From the NCBI GenBank assembly GCA_965237675.1, contig OZ250150.1, positions 3,200,001 through 3,264,000 of the forward strand: DNA of 64,000 nucleotides, given 5' to 3'. This document shows, piece by piece, positions 23,049 to 34,945 of this stretch (positions within the stretch are counted from its first letter, which is position 1; each line of letters starts with the position of its first letter). A program made the position numbers and the translations under genes. The notes under the pieces were generated by a model. It was not told the DNA's origin. It made no database searches and saw only the letters and a program-made list of their open reading frames with translations. This stretch comes from Candidatus Latescibacterota bacterium (GTDB taxonomy: Bacteria; Latescibacterota; UBA2968; GCA-2709665).

Positions 23049-23885
23049 ATGTCCTGGACGATAAGACGATTCGCTGTGTTGTTGATGTTGTTGGGCACGA
23101 CGGGCTGCGGCGCCTCGTTGTTGGAACTGTCGAAACGTGGAGACCTGCAGGCGGTAGAGCAGGCGTTGCAACGTGGAAGCAACGTGAATGCCAGGACGGT
23201 TCAGGGGCACAGCCCGTTGACTCTGGCGGCACGGGAGGGCCACCTGGCGGTCGTTCAGGCCCTGATTCAGGCCGGCGCGGATCCGGACGCTGTGGCGTGG
23301 TCATTAAGCACACATCCGCGCCCCCGTGCATTTCGCCACCAGGGGTCCGAACTTACGAGGGAACGTTTCGTGAACGCCGACAGTTCCGGGCCGCAGTCCA
23401 GGTTTATGGCCGAGCGTACCGAAATCGATGTGGTCTGGGTGCTGAAAGATGGGAAAACACCCCTGATGCTCGCCGCCGAAAGGGGTCACCTGGATGTGGT
23501 TGAAGCGCTGGTCGATAACGGCGCCGATGTGCGGTTGACAAGCGGCGGCTATTGGGCGCTCGACACAAAGCCTGATAGGGAGAACTTCGACTTTTCTGCT
23601 TACCCGAGTGTTCCCCAGCCTCGAGATCCTGGCGACGTCTCTGGCCATTTCCTTCAACACAGCCGCTATTATGGCCATGAATCTTATGAATACGGCGACT
23701 ACGTTGAAACGGAAGACGCCTCTGGCAAACTCTCCGCCAGTGCGTTTCATGGTTATCCCCGGCGGTTTTACGACTCGCCGGACAGAAAGACGGCACGGGA
23801 TCTGGCGTATGAGTACGGGCATGTGGACATCGTCGATTTTCTTCGAAAAGCCATCCGGAGGAGGCCTGCATCGAGTTCAAGATAG
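23049..23885 (+). CDS. Ankyrin-repeat lipoprotein
   Basis: Signal peptide with TTGC lipobox-like site. SPLTLAAREGH, TPLMLAAERGH and TARDLAYEYGH repeats. Confidence 0.85.
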   Translation: MSWTIRRFAVLLMLLGTTGCGASLLELSKRGDLQAVEQALQRGSNVNARTVQGHSPLTLAAREGHLAVVQALIQAGADPDAVAWSLSTHPRPRAFRHQGSELTRERFVNADSSGPQSRFMAERTEIDVVWVLKDGKTPLMLAAERGHLDVVEALVDNGADVRLTSGGYWALDTKPDRENFDFSAYPSVPQPRDPGDVSGHFLQHSRYYGHESYEYGDYVETEDASGKLSASAFHGYPRRFYDSPDRKTARDLAYEYGHVDIVDFLRKAIRRRPASSSR

Positions 23886-24273: not shown

Positions 24274-24996
24274 ATGTCTCGAACGATCAAGCCATTTGCA
24301 TTTCTGTTGATCGTGATGGGTGTGGGGGGTTGCGGCGCCTCGTTGATGGAATTGTCACAGCGCGGAGACCTGCAAGCCGTGCAGCGGGCGTTGCACGATG
24401 GACACGACGTGAATGCCAGGACGGTTCAGGGGCAAAGCCCGCTGACGCTGGCGGCCAGGGAAGGGCACCTGGACGTAGTCCGGGCGTTGATTCAGGCCGG
24501 TGCGGAACTGGATGTCAGGGCCTGGACTATAGGCGCAAATTCGCGTACGCGCATCTACCGCCATCTGGCTCCAGAGCTTACCCGAGAGCGGTTCGTAAAT
24601 GTCGACAGTTCCGGACCTCAGTCCCTGTTCATGGCGCAGCGTTCCCGTGACCACGCCAACCTTGCGCTGAGAGACGGGAAAACGGCGCTGATGTTCGCCG
24701 CTGAGAGGGGGCACGTGGAGATCGTCAAAGCGCTGATCCAGGCAGGCGCGGACGTGCGTAAAAAAAGTGGCTCTACTCGAAGTCGTCTTTATGATCGTCG
24801 TGGACACGCCGGTGTCGACGCAAACAGCCGCACGCCTAAGAGGATCGGATATCTTAATCGTACGTATCCCCAACAGGTTCACGATTCGCCGGACAGAAAA
24901 ACCGCACAGGATTTGGCTTACGAGAATGGGCATATGGATATCGTGAATCTTCTAATAAAGGCCGACCTGCGGTTGCTTGAAGGGAGCAACAGGTAA
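24274..24996 (+). CDS. Ankyrin-repeat lipoprotein (paralog of 23049-23885)
   Basis: VGGC lipobox-like site and the same ankyrin blocks as the upstream paralog. Confidence 0.85.
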   Translation: MSRTIKPFAFLLIVMGVGGCGASLMELSQRGDLQAVQRALHDGHDVNARTVQGQSPLTLAAREGHLDVVRALIQAGAELDVRAWTIGANSRTRIYRHLAPELTRERFVNVDSSGPQSLFMAQRSRDHANLALRDGKTALMFAAERGHVEIVKALIQAGADVRKKSGSTRSRLYDRRGHAGVDANSRTPKRIGYLNRTYPQQVHDSPDRKTAQDLAYENGHMDIVNLLIKADLRLLEGSNR

Positions 24997-31028: not shown

Positions 31029-31229
31029 ATGCACGCGGTTGTATCATCGATCGACCTGCGTCGGCCATCGCCGGGTCCAGGTATTCCCGCACGGAGCGCC
31101 CGATTCCGAGAGTTGGTTCAATTTTGAGGTTGAATGGGAACTGCCTTGTGCAAATTTTTAAAGGATGCCTGCTGCCTGGCGCGGCGAGGCGCCGTTTCTG
31201 CTCGACGTCGAAAATTCGTTAAGATACGG

Positions 31230-32426
31230 ATGATGAAAATCCTCGAACATGTGTGGTGGCGGTACTTGCTGACGTTCGGCCTGTTTCTGGCTGTGGCTGA
31301 CTGCGGCAAGACACCGCCCACCGTGGACGATGATCTGTACGAAGAGTACCCGGGGTTGCCCTACGGGATCATGATCACCCTCGCCGGCACCGGAGATGCA
31401 GGCAGGAACGCCACGGGATCGGGTCCTCTGGATACGCACCTGTATTTTCCCCAGGATATGACCGTTGGACCCGACGGTCGGACATACATTCTGGATTGGA
31501 ACAACAATCGCGTTCTTGTGATCGACAACGGAATCGTGCGTCCCCTGATCGGTAGCGGCGAACCGGGTGATGCGCTCGCGGGTCCGGCACTGGAGGTGGG
31601 CATCGACCACCCGACCCATATTTCGTTCGATCCCCAGGGAAGATTGATCCTTTCGGCCTGGCAGAATGCCAGGATCCTGAGGTATGATTTTACCACAGGC
31701 CGCGTCGAACCCATTGCCGGCCGGGGCGAACGCGGTTTCGGGGGCGACGGCGGCCCCGCTCTCGAAGCCTCGTTAAATCTTCCGAGTTCCACGGTCTTCG
31801 ACGAATCCGGCCGTATGTATATCTCGGATCAGGGCAACCTTCGCATTCGTATGGTGGATCTCAACGGTGTGATCTCCACCGTTGCGGGAACCGGACGGGA
31901 GGGACTTGCCGGGGACGGTGGTCCTGCCATTCTGGCCGACCTCTATGCACCGACAGGAGACGCGGCGCAGCCCGCCGGCCGGATTGCCATGGATAGCCGG
32001 GGCAACCTTTATATCGCAGATACGTTCAACAATCGCATCCGCATGGTGGATACCACAGGCAGAATCAGCACGGTGGCCGGCGGCAGCAGTATCGGCCCGA
32101 CTGCCGGAACGTATTCCGGAGATGGCGGACCGGCGACCGAGGCCAACCTCTCGCGCCCCAGCGACGTGGTCGTCGATGCGGAGGGAAACCTGTTTATTGC
32201 CGATACCGGTAACCATTGTATCCGCAAGGTGGATACCAGCGGTTTTATTACCACCCTGGCCGGCCGGTGTGGAGAGCCGGGTTTCAAGGGCGACAGCGAC
32301 CATCCCCGGTGGGGAAAACTCAGGAGTCCCTACGGGGTTGCACTCGATCAGGACGAGAATCTGTACATCGCCGATACGTTCAACCATCGGATTCGCGTGG
32401 TGTACAAGAATGTCGTCGAAAGATGA
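31230..32426 (+). CDS. NHL-repeat (teneurin-like) exported protein, probable lipoprotein
   Basis: Repeated GDGGPA...L..P..V..D..GNLYIADT.N.RIR.VD units. Hydrophobic N-terminus ending LAVADC. Confidence 0.88.
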   Translation: MMKILEHVWWRYLLTFGLFLAVADCGKTPPTVDDDLYEEYPGLPYGIMITLAGTGDAGRNATGSGPLDTHLYFPQDMTVGPDGRTYILDWNNNRVLVIDNGIVRPLIGSGEPGDALAGPALEVGIDHPTHISFDPQGRLILSAWQNARILRYDFTTGRVEPIAGRGERGFGGDGGPALEASLNLPSSTVFDESGRMYISDQGNLRIRMVDLNGVISTVAGTGREGLAGDGGPAILADLYAPTGDAAQPAGRIAMDSRGNLYIADTFNNRIRMVDTTGRISTVAGGSSIGPTAGTYSGDGGPATEANLSRPSDVVVDAEGNLFIADTGNHCIRKVDTSGFITTLAGRCGEPGFKGDSDHPRWGKLRSPYGVALDQDENLYIADTFNHRIRVVYKNVVER

Positions 32427-32491
32427 TCCGTCAATCGGTCAGCGGGGGACATGGTTTTCGGGTATGGATGCCGTTCCTCGAGGGAGTGTTT

Positions 32492-32995
32492 ATGGGCGGG
32501 ACAAAACTGGTTTGGATCACCGGGGTTGTGCTGGGGGCGGGTCTGATATTCAGTTTCCCCGATGTCGGGGCCGCAAAGGACGGAAAATCCAATCCTTTAC
32601 CTCGGGTGCAGGTCGTCACGCTCGAGGGAGATACGCTGAGTCTGGCCGAGGTCTGCGAAGGAAAGACATCCTTCATTTATTTGTGGGCCACCTGGTGCAA
32701 AACCTGCAAGAAGGATATGGAGAATGTCTTCAAGTTGCGGGAGAAATTCGGAGAGAGGGTGCAGGTCTTCGGCATCGCATGGAAGAATAGCGCGGAGGAG
32801 ATCCAGACCTACTTCGCCGGAAGGAAAGAATCGCTGCACAGCTACATCGATACCGACGGACGTGTGTTCGAGGCTTTCGACACCCGGTTGACGCCCACGG
32901 TTGTGATCGTAGACGGCCGCGGGGAGGTCCTTTTTTCCGGGTACGCTTCCTTTCGAAGATTCAGAAAATTGCTGGACAAGGCATTGAAAGGCTAG
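32492..32995 (+). CDS. TlpA-family thiol-disulfide oxidoreductase
   Basis: WATWCKTC active site, cis-Pro region LTPTVVIVDGRG, N-terminal signal/anchor. Confidence 0.88.
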   Translation: MGGTKLVWITGVVLGAGLIFSFPDVGAAKDGKSNPLPRVQVVTLEGDTLSLAEVCEGKTSFIYLWATWCKTCKKDMENVFKLREKFGERVQVFGIAWKNSAEEIQTYFAGRKESLHSYIDTDGRVFEAFDTRLTPTVVIVDGRGEVLFSGYASFRRFRKLLDKALKG

Positions 32996-33031
32996 TGTTC
33001 TGTCCCGGAAATAGATTGCCGAAATTCGGCC
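32992..33031 (+). repeat. 40-bp dispersed repeat, copy 1 (provides the tlpA stop codon)
   Basis: CTAGTGTTCTGTCCCGGAAATAGATTGCCGAAATTCGGCC, 38/40 identical to 46426-46465. Confidence 0.85.
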
Positions 33032-33071
33032 GCCGAGCGATGGCAACGCAGCGAGAAGGGATGAATCGGCG

Positions 33072-33107
33072 CCTGCCTGTGCGTGCTGCCTCACGCACGC
33101 AGACAGG
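33072..33107. repeat. REP-like imperfect palindrome
   Basis: CCTGCCTGTGCGTG...CACGCACGCAGACAGG. Confidence 0.55.
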
Positions 33108-33186
33108 GAAGAATGGTGACATATTTCTGGGAGGTGACACCGGTCGTCGATTGAACGCTAACCACAACGTTGGAGGAGCGTGGACG

Positions 33187-34161
33187 ATGAGACGAGTATT
33201 ACTGGTTTTTCCGTTGATCCTGCTCACCCACCTGGTTCTCGGAAACAAATCTGTTCTGGCGCAACCCGGCGTGAGTTGACGTCGTCCCGTGCTCCCGGGC
33301 GGGAGAATGCTCCAGGGCAGTCTGATTACCCAGGATCTTTTCGTTCTGAGCGTGAATTACGAGTATGAGTTTCTGGGCGATGCGATGTTTGGTACAGGGC
33401 CGATCCCCAACGTCAACCAGGAAGTCACCAGCATTTCAACGGTGTCGGTATTCGCAAGTTATGGGGTCAAGGAATGGTTCGGCGCCGCCGTGGTTCTTCC
33501 GTTTCGGTCCATAACCAACGACAAATTTCTTCTTCCAGGTCAGTACGACAACCAGTATCTGGGCGGCGATTATGTCCGGCATGCCGCCGGTCTCGGCGAC
33601 GTTGTTCTGATGTTGAACTTTGCCCCTCCTCTGCCGGAAGCATTGCCCGGGCTGCTTTTTTCGGCAGGTGTCAAGCTCGCGAACGGGTCGACCCATGCGG
33701 TCGATGAGTATGACCAGCGGTTCGCCGACTTACTGCAGGTGGGTTCCGGCAGCATGGACCCCATTTTCTCCGTAAGTCTGTCGCGCGACTTCAATAACCT
33801 GTTTTTCTCCGGTATGCTGTTCACACGCATTATTTCACGCGAGAATGTATATGGCTACAAATACGGGAACGAGTTTCAGGGCATCTTTTCAATGGAATAT
33901 ATGCATGGGGACATGTTTATTGCGGGTTTCAGCCTGAACCACGTTCACACGGCTCGCGATTATTTCCAATATGGAAAAATCGCCCGAAAACGCGGGGGCA
34001 CCTGGCTCTATGTCGCGCCGAAGCTGGGCGTACGGGCAATGGAAAATTTGAGCCTGGAGGCGAGATTGCCGCTTCCCGTTTACCAGAAAGTGAACGAAAG
34101 CCAGCTAACCTCCGATTATCAGTTCCACGTGGGCGCCACGTATCATTTTTTGGCTCGATAA
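33187..34161 (+). CDS. Outer-membrane beta-barrel (MetA/phenol-degradation 'transporter'-like), probable selenoprotein with in-frame UGA at codon 31
   Basis: GGAGGAG RBS and signal peptide MRRVLL...VLA. TGA at 33277-33279 is in frame with the 33289-34161 ORF. GLGD, QVGSGSMD and PVYQKVNESQL motifs. C-terminal GATYHF resembles a beta-signal. Confidence 0.72.
33288..33309 (+). promoter_or_regulatory. Candidate bacterial SECIS element
   Basis: CGT-G-CTCCC-[GGGC]-GGGAG-A-ATG hairpin. The G-rich apical loop begins 18 nt after the UGA. Confidence 0.6.
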
Positions 34162-34213
34162 GCGGCGAGAGAAGGCCGTGTAGCGTGGTTTTGGTAAAGA
34201 GCAGGAGGCTGCC

Positions 34214-34945
34214 GTGGCACAAAGAGACACCGAAAAGATGTGGGCCGAACTGGCGCCATTCTACGACGTATTGTATCTGTGGAAGGACTATGCGGCCGAG
34301 GCCGCACGGGTTCATCAATTGATCCAAACGCATCGGATGTCGTCCGGCAACACACTGCTGGATGTCGCGTGCGGGACCGGTGAACACACCCGGTTTCTTC
34401 GGGAGCACTACGATGTAACCGGTGTCGATCTGAATCGGGAAATGTTGAAGGTGGCGCGAAGGAAGATCCCCGGGGTCCCGTTACTTTGCCGGGATATGAC
34501 TTCTTTCGACCTGAAGCGTCGGTTTGACGCGGTTGTCTGCCTGTTCAGTTCGATTGCCTACGTCAGGATCTACCGGAACCTGAAGCGGACCATCGCTTGT
34601 TTTGGAAGACATTTGAAACCGGGTGGCATTCTTGTCATAGAGCCCTTTTTCACGACAGAGACATTTCTGCCGGGATCGATCCACGCAGGTACCCTTGAAG
34701 CCGAAGGCGTCAAGATCTCCAGACACACCGTGAGCAGGCGCCGCGGAAACCTGGCCGTTCTCGACTTCCATTTTCTTCTCTCAACCATGAAAGGCGTACA
34801 ATACTTTCGGGACACCCACGAATTGGCGCTCTTCGACCGGGAGCGATTCCTCGAAATTCTCTCGGACGCCGGACTTCGCACGTGGTATTACGAGGACGGA
34901 TTGATGCGAGATCGAGGACTCTACGTGTCGTTGAAAGCCCTTTGA
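34214..34945 (+). CDS. Class I SAM-dependent methyltransferase (TylM1/DesVI-like)
   Basis: KDYAAEA, LLDVACGTGEH, FDAVVCLFSSIAY, HLKPGG. Confidence 0.85.
   Translation: MAQRDTEKMWAELAPFYDVLYLWKDYAAEAARVHQLIQTHRMSSGNTLLDVACGTGEHTRFLREHYDVTGVDLNREMLKVARRKIPGVPLLCRDMTSFDLKRRFDAVVCLFSSIAYVRIYRNLKRTIACFGRHLKPGGILVIEPFFTTETFLPGSIHAGTLEAEGVKISRHTVSRRRGNLAVLDFHFLLSTMKGVQYFRDTHELALFDRERFLEILSDAGLRTWYYEDGLMRDRGLYVSLKAL

Follow-up and report, generated by a model that had tools for sequence, protein, structure and literature searches.

Positions 33187-34161 of the window, by which we mean the whole 64,000-nucleotide stretch analysed here from Candidatus Latescibacterota bacterium (assembly GCA_965237675.1, contig OZ250150.1, positions 3,200,001 to 3,264,000 of the forward strand), very probably constitute one gene that encodes an exported selenoprotein and is consistently mis-annotated, the product being a predicted outer-membrane β-barrel with selenocysteine (Sec) at an in-frame TGA. 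The frame opening at ATG 33187 reads MRRVLLVFPLILLTHLVLGNKSVLA as signal peptide and QPGVS after the cleavage site, meets the TGA at 33277-33279 and stays open for 293 more codons until the TAA at 34159-34161, just as an earlier note, made by reading the letters of this DNA, had described. A mechanical list of open reading frames (ORFs) splits this barrel gene into a 94-aa ORF running to the TGA and a 290-aa ORF starting from GTG 33289 without a signal peptide, so that its N-terminus is missed by ORF calling, again as the note had held. The strong ribosome-binding site that it placed before the gene was located (Table 1), and a GGAGG or GAGGA motif precedes the start codon in most homologous loci. 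The note was also right about the length of the precursor, 324 aa, about Sec as mature residue 6 and about the absence of Cys from the mature barrel protein; Sec is its lone residue of the Cys/Sec kind, and zero Cys was counted in the mature proteins of 38 of the 39 family genes.

The TGA proved to be kept throughout the family. Searching the protein database yielded 18 homologues, of which 16 (253-289 aa, 35-89% identical, one of them an NCBI record) start past the TGA and lack a signal peptide, and the two most distant ones (330 and 339 aa) have both a signal peptide and cysteines aligned to the TGA. When the DNA of 38 homologous loci was taken from species-representative genomes and read in the frame of the match, a signal peptide followed by AQ[PG]G[VI][SN]-TGA-RRP.LP was observed in 37, the exception (L050) matching only in part, at 24% identity, and not reaching this region. 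With the paralog in the own genome added to these 37 loci, the full-length homologous genes number 38, and in each of them the TGA aligns to one and the same position; they are 37-94% identical and come from independent assemblies, the record titles naming Latescibacterota, 'Gemmatimonadota' bins, KSB1, Calditrichaceae and Marinimicrobia/Neomarinimicrobiota/Fidelibacterota. Judged by eye, the stretch from the in-frame start to Q[PG]G[VI][SN]U is built like a signal peptide in all 38 genes, with basic residues first, a hydrophobic core next and an A-x-A-type cleavage site last, and the TGA thereby falls on mature residue 6 in every case. Seventeen columns are invariant in the 19-sequence protein alignment A3, two Cys forms included. 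The arrangement of signal peptide, TGA and barrel is far beyond chance.

A search of 168 genomes of the phylum returned a match at E 1e-20 or better in 24, and the in-frame TGA was present in all 33 matches of 250 bits or more. Every one of the 15 genomes searched from the window's genus holds two copies with one TGA each; in the own genome the second copy (L052, C1:3813921-3814817, minus strand) is 53% identical and has a single TGA at the same site and an identical hairpin core. Because gene callers cut the family in two, an outer-membrane protein of this regular occurrence has gone unrecognised. As for support of the codon in other sequencing data, contigs of four public runs cover the site and none differs at 33277-33279 among the differences listed; one covering contig, of 5050 bases and from an RNA library, spans 33143-34199 with 77 differences, and being an RNA-library contig it is not proof of transcription. 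Two weaker profile matches were noticed in other families of the phylum, G013:C2:1379181-1380071 (119 bits) and G038:C1:115667-116581 (110 bits), with one in-frame TGA each, and these may be further Sec-bearing branches of the family.

Downstream of the TGA lies a hairpin that, as read from the sequences, behaves like a selenocysteine insertion sequence (SECIS) element, with a G in the apical loop and at an fdhF-like distance. It is made of CTCCC (33292-33296), GGGC (33297-33300) and GGGAG (33301-33305), and its loop starts 18 nt past the last base of the UGA. Among 33 aligned hairpin sequences, 31 of which are distinct, pairing holds throughout the five-pair stem (155 of 155 cells, counted on the distinct ones). 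The Leu, Pro, Gly and Ser/Arg codons leave four of the pairs no freedom; the middle one joins the third, synonymous positions of the Leu and the second Gly codons and covaries (CG 24, UA 5, AU 1, UG 1, unpaired 0), with a score that was reached by 0 of 500 shuffles and lay above those of all slid registers. The loop is NGGN, reading GGUC in L048. The barrel gene thus has UGA, 12 nt, a 5-bp stem and a GGGC loop, the hairpin coding for Leu-Pro-Gly-Gly-Arg/Ser, and the selD gene of the same genome has UGA, 12 nt and AGUCC-GGUC-GGACU, equal in spacer, stem length and loop size. The earlier proposal that the geometry fits bacterial SECIS elements is hence borne out by pairing in all aligned sequences, by covariation and by the likeness to the selD hairpin.

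Scanning the genome for a TGA followed after 11-13 nt by a 5-bp hairpin with a GG loop gave 44 candidates, selD and both barrel genes among them; most of the other 41 look like the spurious ORFs of a GC-rich genome, and the scan is therefore uninformative on the size of the selenoproteome. The SECIS-like scan also met about eleven copies of a repeat, in which a TGA is followed by a GGCTG-CGGC-CGGCT hairpin and which in one frame reads ...AR-TGA-KSPSGLRPALVAELL (on C1, e.g. plus strand 1733621, 2209102, 4027173, 4045934, 5067982 and 5216839; minus strand 3632108, 2252006 and 383928); it looks like a repeated element, not a selenoprotein.

Cysteine takes the place of Sec in most relatives. A profile search of 1.84 billion representatives identified 4413 relatives at E 0.001 or better, which amounts to a large uncharacterised branch of the predicted COG4313/FapF fold with Cys motifs at the same spot. 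Once the best 149 of the 4413 were aligned to the profile (hmmalign), the Sec column was found to hold Cys in 125, a gap in 6 and another residue in 5 (G, G, P, W and S), the N-terminus being missing in the remaining 13, which include Sec forms shortened by gene callers. The site accordingly carries TGA or Cys, with no scattered pattern of Trp, Arg or Gly replacement, and the claim that related barrels often bear N-terminal Cys motifs holds. These motifs stand just past the signal peptide as AQ-x-CCSGG[VT]P, CxC or SCGSxxCP, mostly CC, CxC or CxxxxC, and the Cys-type barrels are homologous to the window protein with profile E down to 1e-50. The W at the Sec column belongs to a fragment, P0045 (172 aa), which reads GVSWRRPILPGG; its codon may be a genuine TGG, or else a TGA that was translated with a code assigning it to Trp. 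A quick tree, rooted at the midpoint, was made of 60 rows, namely 45 chosen Cys or other forms together with 15 of the 39 Sec forms. The 15 Sec forms lie on one side of a single branch with a Shimodaira-Hasegawa-like approximate likelihood ratio test value of 99, and closest to them come the SCGSxxCP group and a variant that has Pro at the site.

The genome also encodes the Sec machinery that the reading of the TGA calls for, selA, selB, tRNA-Sec and selD all being found. A selA gene (480.7 bits), a SelB wing domain (76.3 bits, in a 652-aa frame) and a tRNA-SeC with anticodon tca (aragorn) are clustered at C1:4984019-4987314, and selD (locus L009, C1:309559-310482, plus strand, 363.1 bits) has its own in-frame TGA in ...RTCG-U-AAKV, being itself a selenoprotein gene. 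SelA was further found in all five other genomes examined that carry the barrel gene. TGA is at the same time the commonest stop of the genome, ending 1903 of 3671 six-frame ORFs at least 300 codons long, and six intact barrel homologues, as well as the broken L040, end in TGA themselves; the genetic code is therefore not globally changed. On each of the three points that the note had named as refuting, which are absent Sec machinery, Trp, Arg or Gly at the site in homologues, and reads lacking the TGA, the outcome speaks for Sec, on the last one through independent assemblies that keep the codon.

Were the TGA a true stop, the codons before it would form a 30-codon leader or regulatory upstream ORF, and a separate barrel gene would start from GTG 33289 or ATG 33307. 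Exactly this split is yielded by the ORF caller, start-like codons do exist past the TGA in the window, and the public gene calls of 16 of the 18 homologues begin there. Such a downstream product would, however, have no signal peptide and yet be an outer-membrane barrel by fold; the supposed leader, though its sequence varies, resembles a signal peptide in every respect in 38 of 38 genes, none of which loses the frame across the TGA; the Cys relatives are continuous proteins in which the signal peptide is joined to the barrel; and the called start codons past the TGA vary between lineages, all of which makes a true stop very improbable. Given one genome alone, a single early in-frame stop would look like a fresh nonsense mutation in a dead gene, or else like an assembly or sequencing error, but the codon is shared by all 38 homologous genes from independent assemblies and by both paralogs in the 15 genus genomes, the contigs of the four runs show no difference at it among those listed, and the invariant columns of A3 testify to protein-level conservation over the remainder of the gene, so we regard this possibility as negligible.

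Reading of the UGA as Trp, Gly or Cys, through near-cognate decoding or an altered code and with no Sec made, could appeal to the W of P0045, whether that is TGG or a TGA translated as Trp. It is at odds with TGA being the commonest stop and ending several homologues of the barrel gene, with the full Sec machinery here and SelA in the five other carriers, with a hairpin of selD geometry after the codon, and with Cys, the usual counterpart of Sec, in 125 of the 149 relatives, and it is given about as little weight as the true stop, if anything a little less. Alternatively, Sec might be made and serve mainly as a switch, selenium supply deciding on channel synthesis and the side chain having no chemical role; with Sec only 31 codons in, a decoding failure would abort synthesis early, as a switch would want. 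The Cys pair conserved at the same mature place in relatives nevertheless indicates chemistry at the residue, Sec sits in the mature protein and not in the cleaved signal peptide, and a thiol:disulfide oxidoreductase is co-inherited with the barrel gene, which leaves the switch improbable. We keep to an exported protein in which the UGA is read as Sec.

The barrel was assigned by structure prediction. A first AlphaFold2 (AF2) model of the full precursor, built on 19 sequences, had a predicted local distance difference test score (pLDDT) of 78.5, and a second one (model 2), built on 60 sequences with the signal peptide removed and Cys modelled in place of Sec, reached a mean pLDDT of 92.0 and a predicted template modelling score of 0.88. 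VIA-align matched the predicted fold to Pput2725 (4rl8_C; Z 26.5, root-mean-square deviation 2.3 Å, 255 of 268 residues aligned) and to FapF (5o65_A; Z 23.9, 2.6 Å, 244 residues aligned), with autotransporter β-domains next (Z 19-20), and Foldseek agreed (E 8e-10 to 3e-10), with FapF on top at E 2.7e-10. On these models the gene is predicted to encode an outer-membrane barrel of the COG4313 fold with Sec on its plug, and the window protein is, by predicted fold, a remote relative of COG4313. Sequence searches gave the window protein, with or without its N-terminus, no Pfam family at E 0.01 or better, PF13557 included, no NCBIfam 20.0 family at E 1 or better, and nothing at E 1 or better in a PDB sequence profile search; the PF13557 threshold was reached by 3 of 9 tested Cys-type relatives, P0014 and P0019 carry precomputed matches, and only some relatives attain 22-24 bits. 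The barrel of the earlier note therefore stands as a predicted fold, and its 'beta-signal-like end' is weak, since the C-terminus ...TYHFLAR has no final aromatic residue; homologues end in ...YHLTF, ...YVFSL or ...YRFTL.

For Pput2725 a 12-stranded barrel has been described whose N-terminal ~14 residues are folded into the lumen from the periplasmic side, and the word 'cysteine' occurs 0 times in that paper (PMC4493636). Mature residues 12-296 of the window protein align to residues 1-268 of the 4rl8 chain, so that residues 12-25 fall on this lumen-inserted N-terminus and residues 1-11 (QPGVSURRPVL) prolong the aligned segment. Residues 5-6 (Ser and Sec) are in a β-bridge in both AF2 models, and a helix is modelled at residues 13-19 in model 2. 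The alignments to pre-cleavage autotransporters begin at model residue 1, and in autotransporters the linker runs through the pore; Sec is accordingly read as lying inside the barrel lumen.

Upstream of the barrel gene the window encodes a redoxin of the TlpA/ResA kind (Pfam Redoxin 1.3e-13, AhpC-TSA 1.2e-11; the NCBIfam models ResA, TlpA and DsbE scored below their cut-offs), preceded by an NHL-repeat propeller (Table 1). Of the 39 genes, 23 from several phyla have such a WATWCxxC redoxin encoded upstream at a distance of less than 1 kb, namely all 14 members of the window's orthologue group and the Calditrichaceae, KSB1, L041 and Marinimicrobia loci. The methyltransferase gene on the other side recurs in both close orthologous loci tested (L016 and L021) and is missing from more distant loci. 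In 12 of 12 loci tested outside the window's orthologue group, a propeller-like protein of 349-424 aa is encoded directly downstream, orthologues of the paralog L052 likewise having a ~350-aa propeller-like protein next to them; an invariant Cys near the N-terminus of this downstream protein may mark a lipoprotein.

Table 1. Features of the barrel gene and of its surroundings in the window
Feature	Position	Strand	Remarks
NHL-repeat β-propeller	31134-32426	+	Pfam NHL 8e-28, TEN_NHL 1.8e-30; directly upstream of the redoxin gene
TlpA/ResA-like periplasmic thiol:disulfide oxidoreductase	32216-32995	+	WATWCKTC; longest ORF, real start probably further downstream
34-nt dispersed repeat	33107-33140	+	redoxin-barrel spacer, ~47 nt upstream of the start; membership in the gene uncertain
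Shine-Dalgarno-like GGAGGAG	33172-33178	+	8 nt 5' of ATG 33187; read from sequence
Whole selenoprotein gene	33187-34161	+	324 codons + TAA; Sec is codon 31; translation with TGA as U gives one open frame
Signal peptide	33187-33261	+	25 residues (MRR, hydrophobic core, VLA before Q); by inspection
Mature N-terminal segment	33262-33336	+	25 residues, QPGVSURRPVLPGGRMLQGSLITQD...; precedes first barrel strand; predicted lumen plug
UGA read as Sec	33277-33279	+	codon 31, mature residue 6; from conservation, Cys relatives and Sec machinery
SECIS core hairpin	33292-33305	+	CUCCC / loop GGGC / GGGAG; begins 12 nt after the UGA
12-stranded β-barrel, COG4313 / FapF type	33337-34158	+	predicted; AF2 model and structural matches
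S-adenosylmethionine-dependent methyltransferase	34214-34945	+	Pfam Methyltransf_25 4.8e-18; 52 nt downstream; link to the barrel uncertain

Loci of the Cys-type relatives have neighbours of their own. Of 80 metagenome contigs fetched (L053-L132), 28 gave long loci and 24 of these were tested; a DUF3179 gene is directly downstream of the CCSGGVP-branch barrel in 23 of the 24, and the pair may be a functional unit. Relatedness of DUF3179 to the downstream propeller of the Sec forms was considered and rejected (hhalign probability 2.9%). In the 24 loci a TonB-dependent receptor is encoded upstream in 5, an HMA-domain protein is a neighbour in 2 and a thioredoxin-like one in 2, and at one Cys-type locus a CusB-like protein with a heavy-metal-binding domain is nearby. 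The DUF3179 proteins beside AQTCCSGGVP barrels were seen to have an invariant YCPLTG motif; in the literature, full-text searching found DUF3179 mentioned without a function, and Table 1 of a 2026 review of prokaryotic selenoproteins lists it as a selenoprotein family (PMC13188914).

The spacer between the redoxin and barrel genes contains the 34-nt repeat, of which the genome has 37 copies with at most 4 substitutions on both strands, and many contigs of the four runs break at its edges; it is a dispersed intergenic repeat, possibly promoter-like or of the repetitive extragenic palindrome kind. An imperfect hairpin precedes it at about 33078-33115. Scanning 32900-34300 for sigma-70 promoters and terminators gave counts at shuffle level; a single notable terminator-like site, 34127-34141, falls within the gene near its 3' end. 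Further off in the window lie two adjacent ankyrin-repeat genes (23049-23882 and 24274-24993), which are unusual in free-living bacteria.

If the gene is expressed as proposed, the ribosome would read UGA codon 31 as Sec, with SelB and Sec-tRNA(Sec) binding the minimal SECIS hairpin by the standard mechanism, and the nascent chain would be exported, freed of its signal peptide and inserted in the outer membrane. The product would be a 299-residue, 12-stranded barrel whose first ~25 residues, according to the models, sit in or thread through the lumen. Sec would there take the role of the relatives' Cys pair, as a reactive thiophilic site on the channel plug, and it may either hold a soft ligand, which might be a metal ion or some sulfur or selenium species, or gate the plug through a reversible selenenyl-sulfide; the co-inherited TlpA-like CxxC redoxin would prevent its oxidation. 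With no Cys in the mature protein, an oxidised Sec could be resolved only by another protein, for which the co-inherited redoxin is the obvious candidate, and the Cys pair at the site, together with the metal-handling genes beside some relatives, suggests a thiophilic binding or gating site. We offer this working model, a thiophilic binding or gating Sec on the plug that is reduced by the redoxin, as a tentative one, with odds short of even, most of the remaining probability going to functions of other kinds. The redoxin neighbour and the predicted lumen-plug position of Sec fit the metal- or redox-gated channel that the earlier note had thought of. A bolder form, in which a selenol plug would be a selenium-based gate or hand-over site for a thiophilic cargo or a Se-S partner and be reset by a TlpA-like reductase, we consider rather unlikely; if true, it would mean redox chemistry by an outer-membrane channel protein, and the module would be ancient because the 15 Sec forms, from Latescibacterota, KSB1, Calditrichota and Marinimicrobia, lie on one side of a branch.

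Several points weigh against these interpretations and are gathered here. The selenium in the barrel protein is a prediction from sequence. The hairpin stem has only 5 bp with a single pair free to vary, so that the covariation rests on one column pair; the conserved Leu-Pro-Gly-Gly residues keep selection on RNA and on protein from being fully separable; RNAalifold also suggested an outer helix (columns 5-8 with 48-51), which was discarded, several of its pairs being broken with no compensatory change; and an Rfam scan of 33100-33500 returned no matching model, only a chance snoRNA-like match (E 0.12) on the opposite strand. Over the first twenty mature residues the AF2 model, in which Cys stands in for Sec, has moderate pLDDT (74 for the first ten, 65 for the second ten), and the position of Sec in the lumen is taken from alignment ranges, not from coordinates; should Sec lie deep in the lumen, a periplasmic reductase would reach it only if the plug moves. 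Regarding partners, no gene of the second Latescibacterota paralog group has an upstream redoxin (0 genes), no metal gene was seen within about 10 kb of the gene or anywhere at 19100-46426 of the window, and equating the NHL propeller of the window with the downstream propeller of other lineages failed, the similarity being at repeat level only (best BLASTP E 0.003).

The barrel selenoprotein family was not found in NCBIfam 20.0 or in the published list of 119 families, relative to which it is new. That list, Table 1 of the 2026 review, includes two outer-membrane families, the GSU2204 / MtrB-PioB barrel (NF041027) and the FCYXU-type TonB-dependent receptor (NF049945), and neither is of the predicted fold of the barrel gene (PMC13188914), which would thus add a third outer-membrane selenoprotein fold. 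The string URRP is absent from the supplementary files searched of the Global Ocean Sampling (GOS) selenoproteome paper and the deep-Sep paper, and the GOS 'hypothetical protein GOS_A' was dismissed as an earlier report, its sequence being unrelated. Full-text searching for selenoprotein with the phylum names found only a KSB1 paper that notes selA, selB and selD; subscription journals or other supplements may hold reports. The family is marked by the motif URRPxLPGG and by one unpaired Sec, for which the protein offers neither a Cys nor a second Sec as partner; Sec would thus stand alone at the tip of a channel plug, not in a CxxU or UxxC pair, which would point the COG4313/FapF field to the N-terminal plug as a chemically active element, and the conserved redoxin partner gives the hypothesis that the redox state of Sec depends on the neighbouring reductase.

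Compared with known systems, NF041027 and NF049945 resemble the window protein in being outer-membrane β-barrels predicted to hold Sec, but they are of other folds and families, have 22 or more strands and are much larger; the window protein matches neither model and, unlike them, has Sec right at the start of its mature chain. Pput2725 of Pseudomonas putida F1 (PDB 4RL8; COG4313 / PF13557, Phenol_MetA_deg) has the 12-stranded barrel and lumen N-terminus that are predicted for the window protein, with a sequence identity of about 10% and without the 11 extra N-terminal residues that bear Sec; the substrates proposed for COG4313 are hydrophobic or amphipathic molecules, and no catabolic neighbour of the window gene points there. 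FapF (PDB 5O65), which serves amyloid secretion in Pseudomonas, shares the 12-stranded fold and a plugged lumen, and it has a long periplasmic N-terminal coiled-coil domain and, to our knowledge, no Sec or Cys motif; no neighbours of the fap operon type were seen among the genes scanned at the window or the other loci. The Cys-type relatives and the Sec forms alike are homologous barrels with the site directly after the signal peptide and a gene for a probable lipoprotein partner directly downstream, the former having two Cys where the window protein has one Sec. In ScoI and CoxB, the cysteines that bind copper are acted on by TlpA-type periplasmic reductases. Genes for Sco or cytochrome oxidase are not seen next to the window gene, whereas the arrangement of the locus is alike, a membrane-anchored CxxC thioredoxin being encoded beside a protein with an exposed Cys or Sec that would need reduction.

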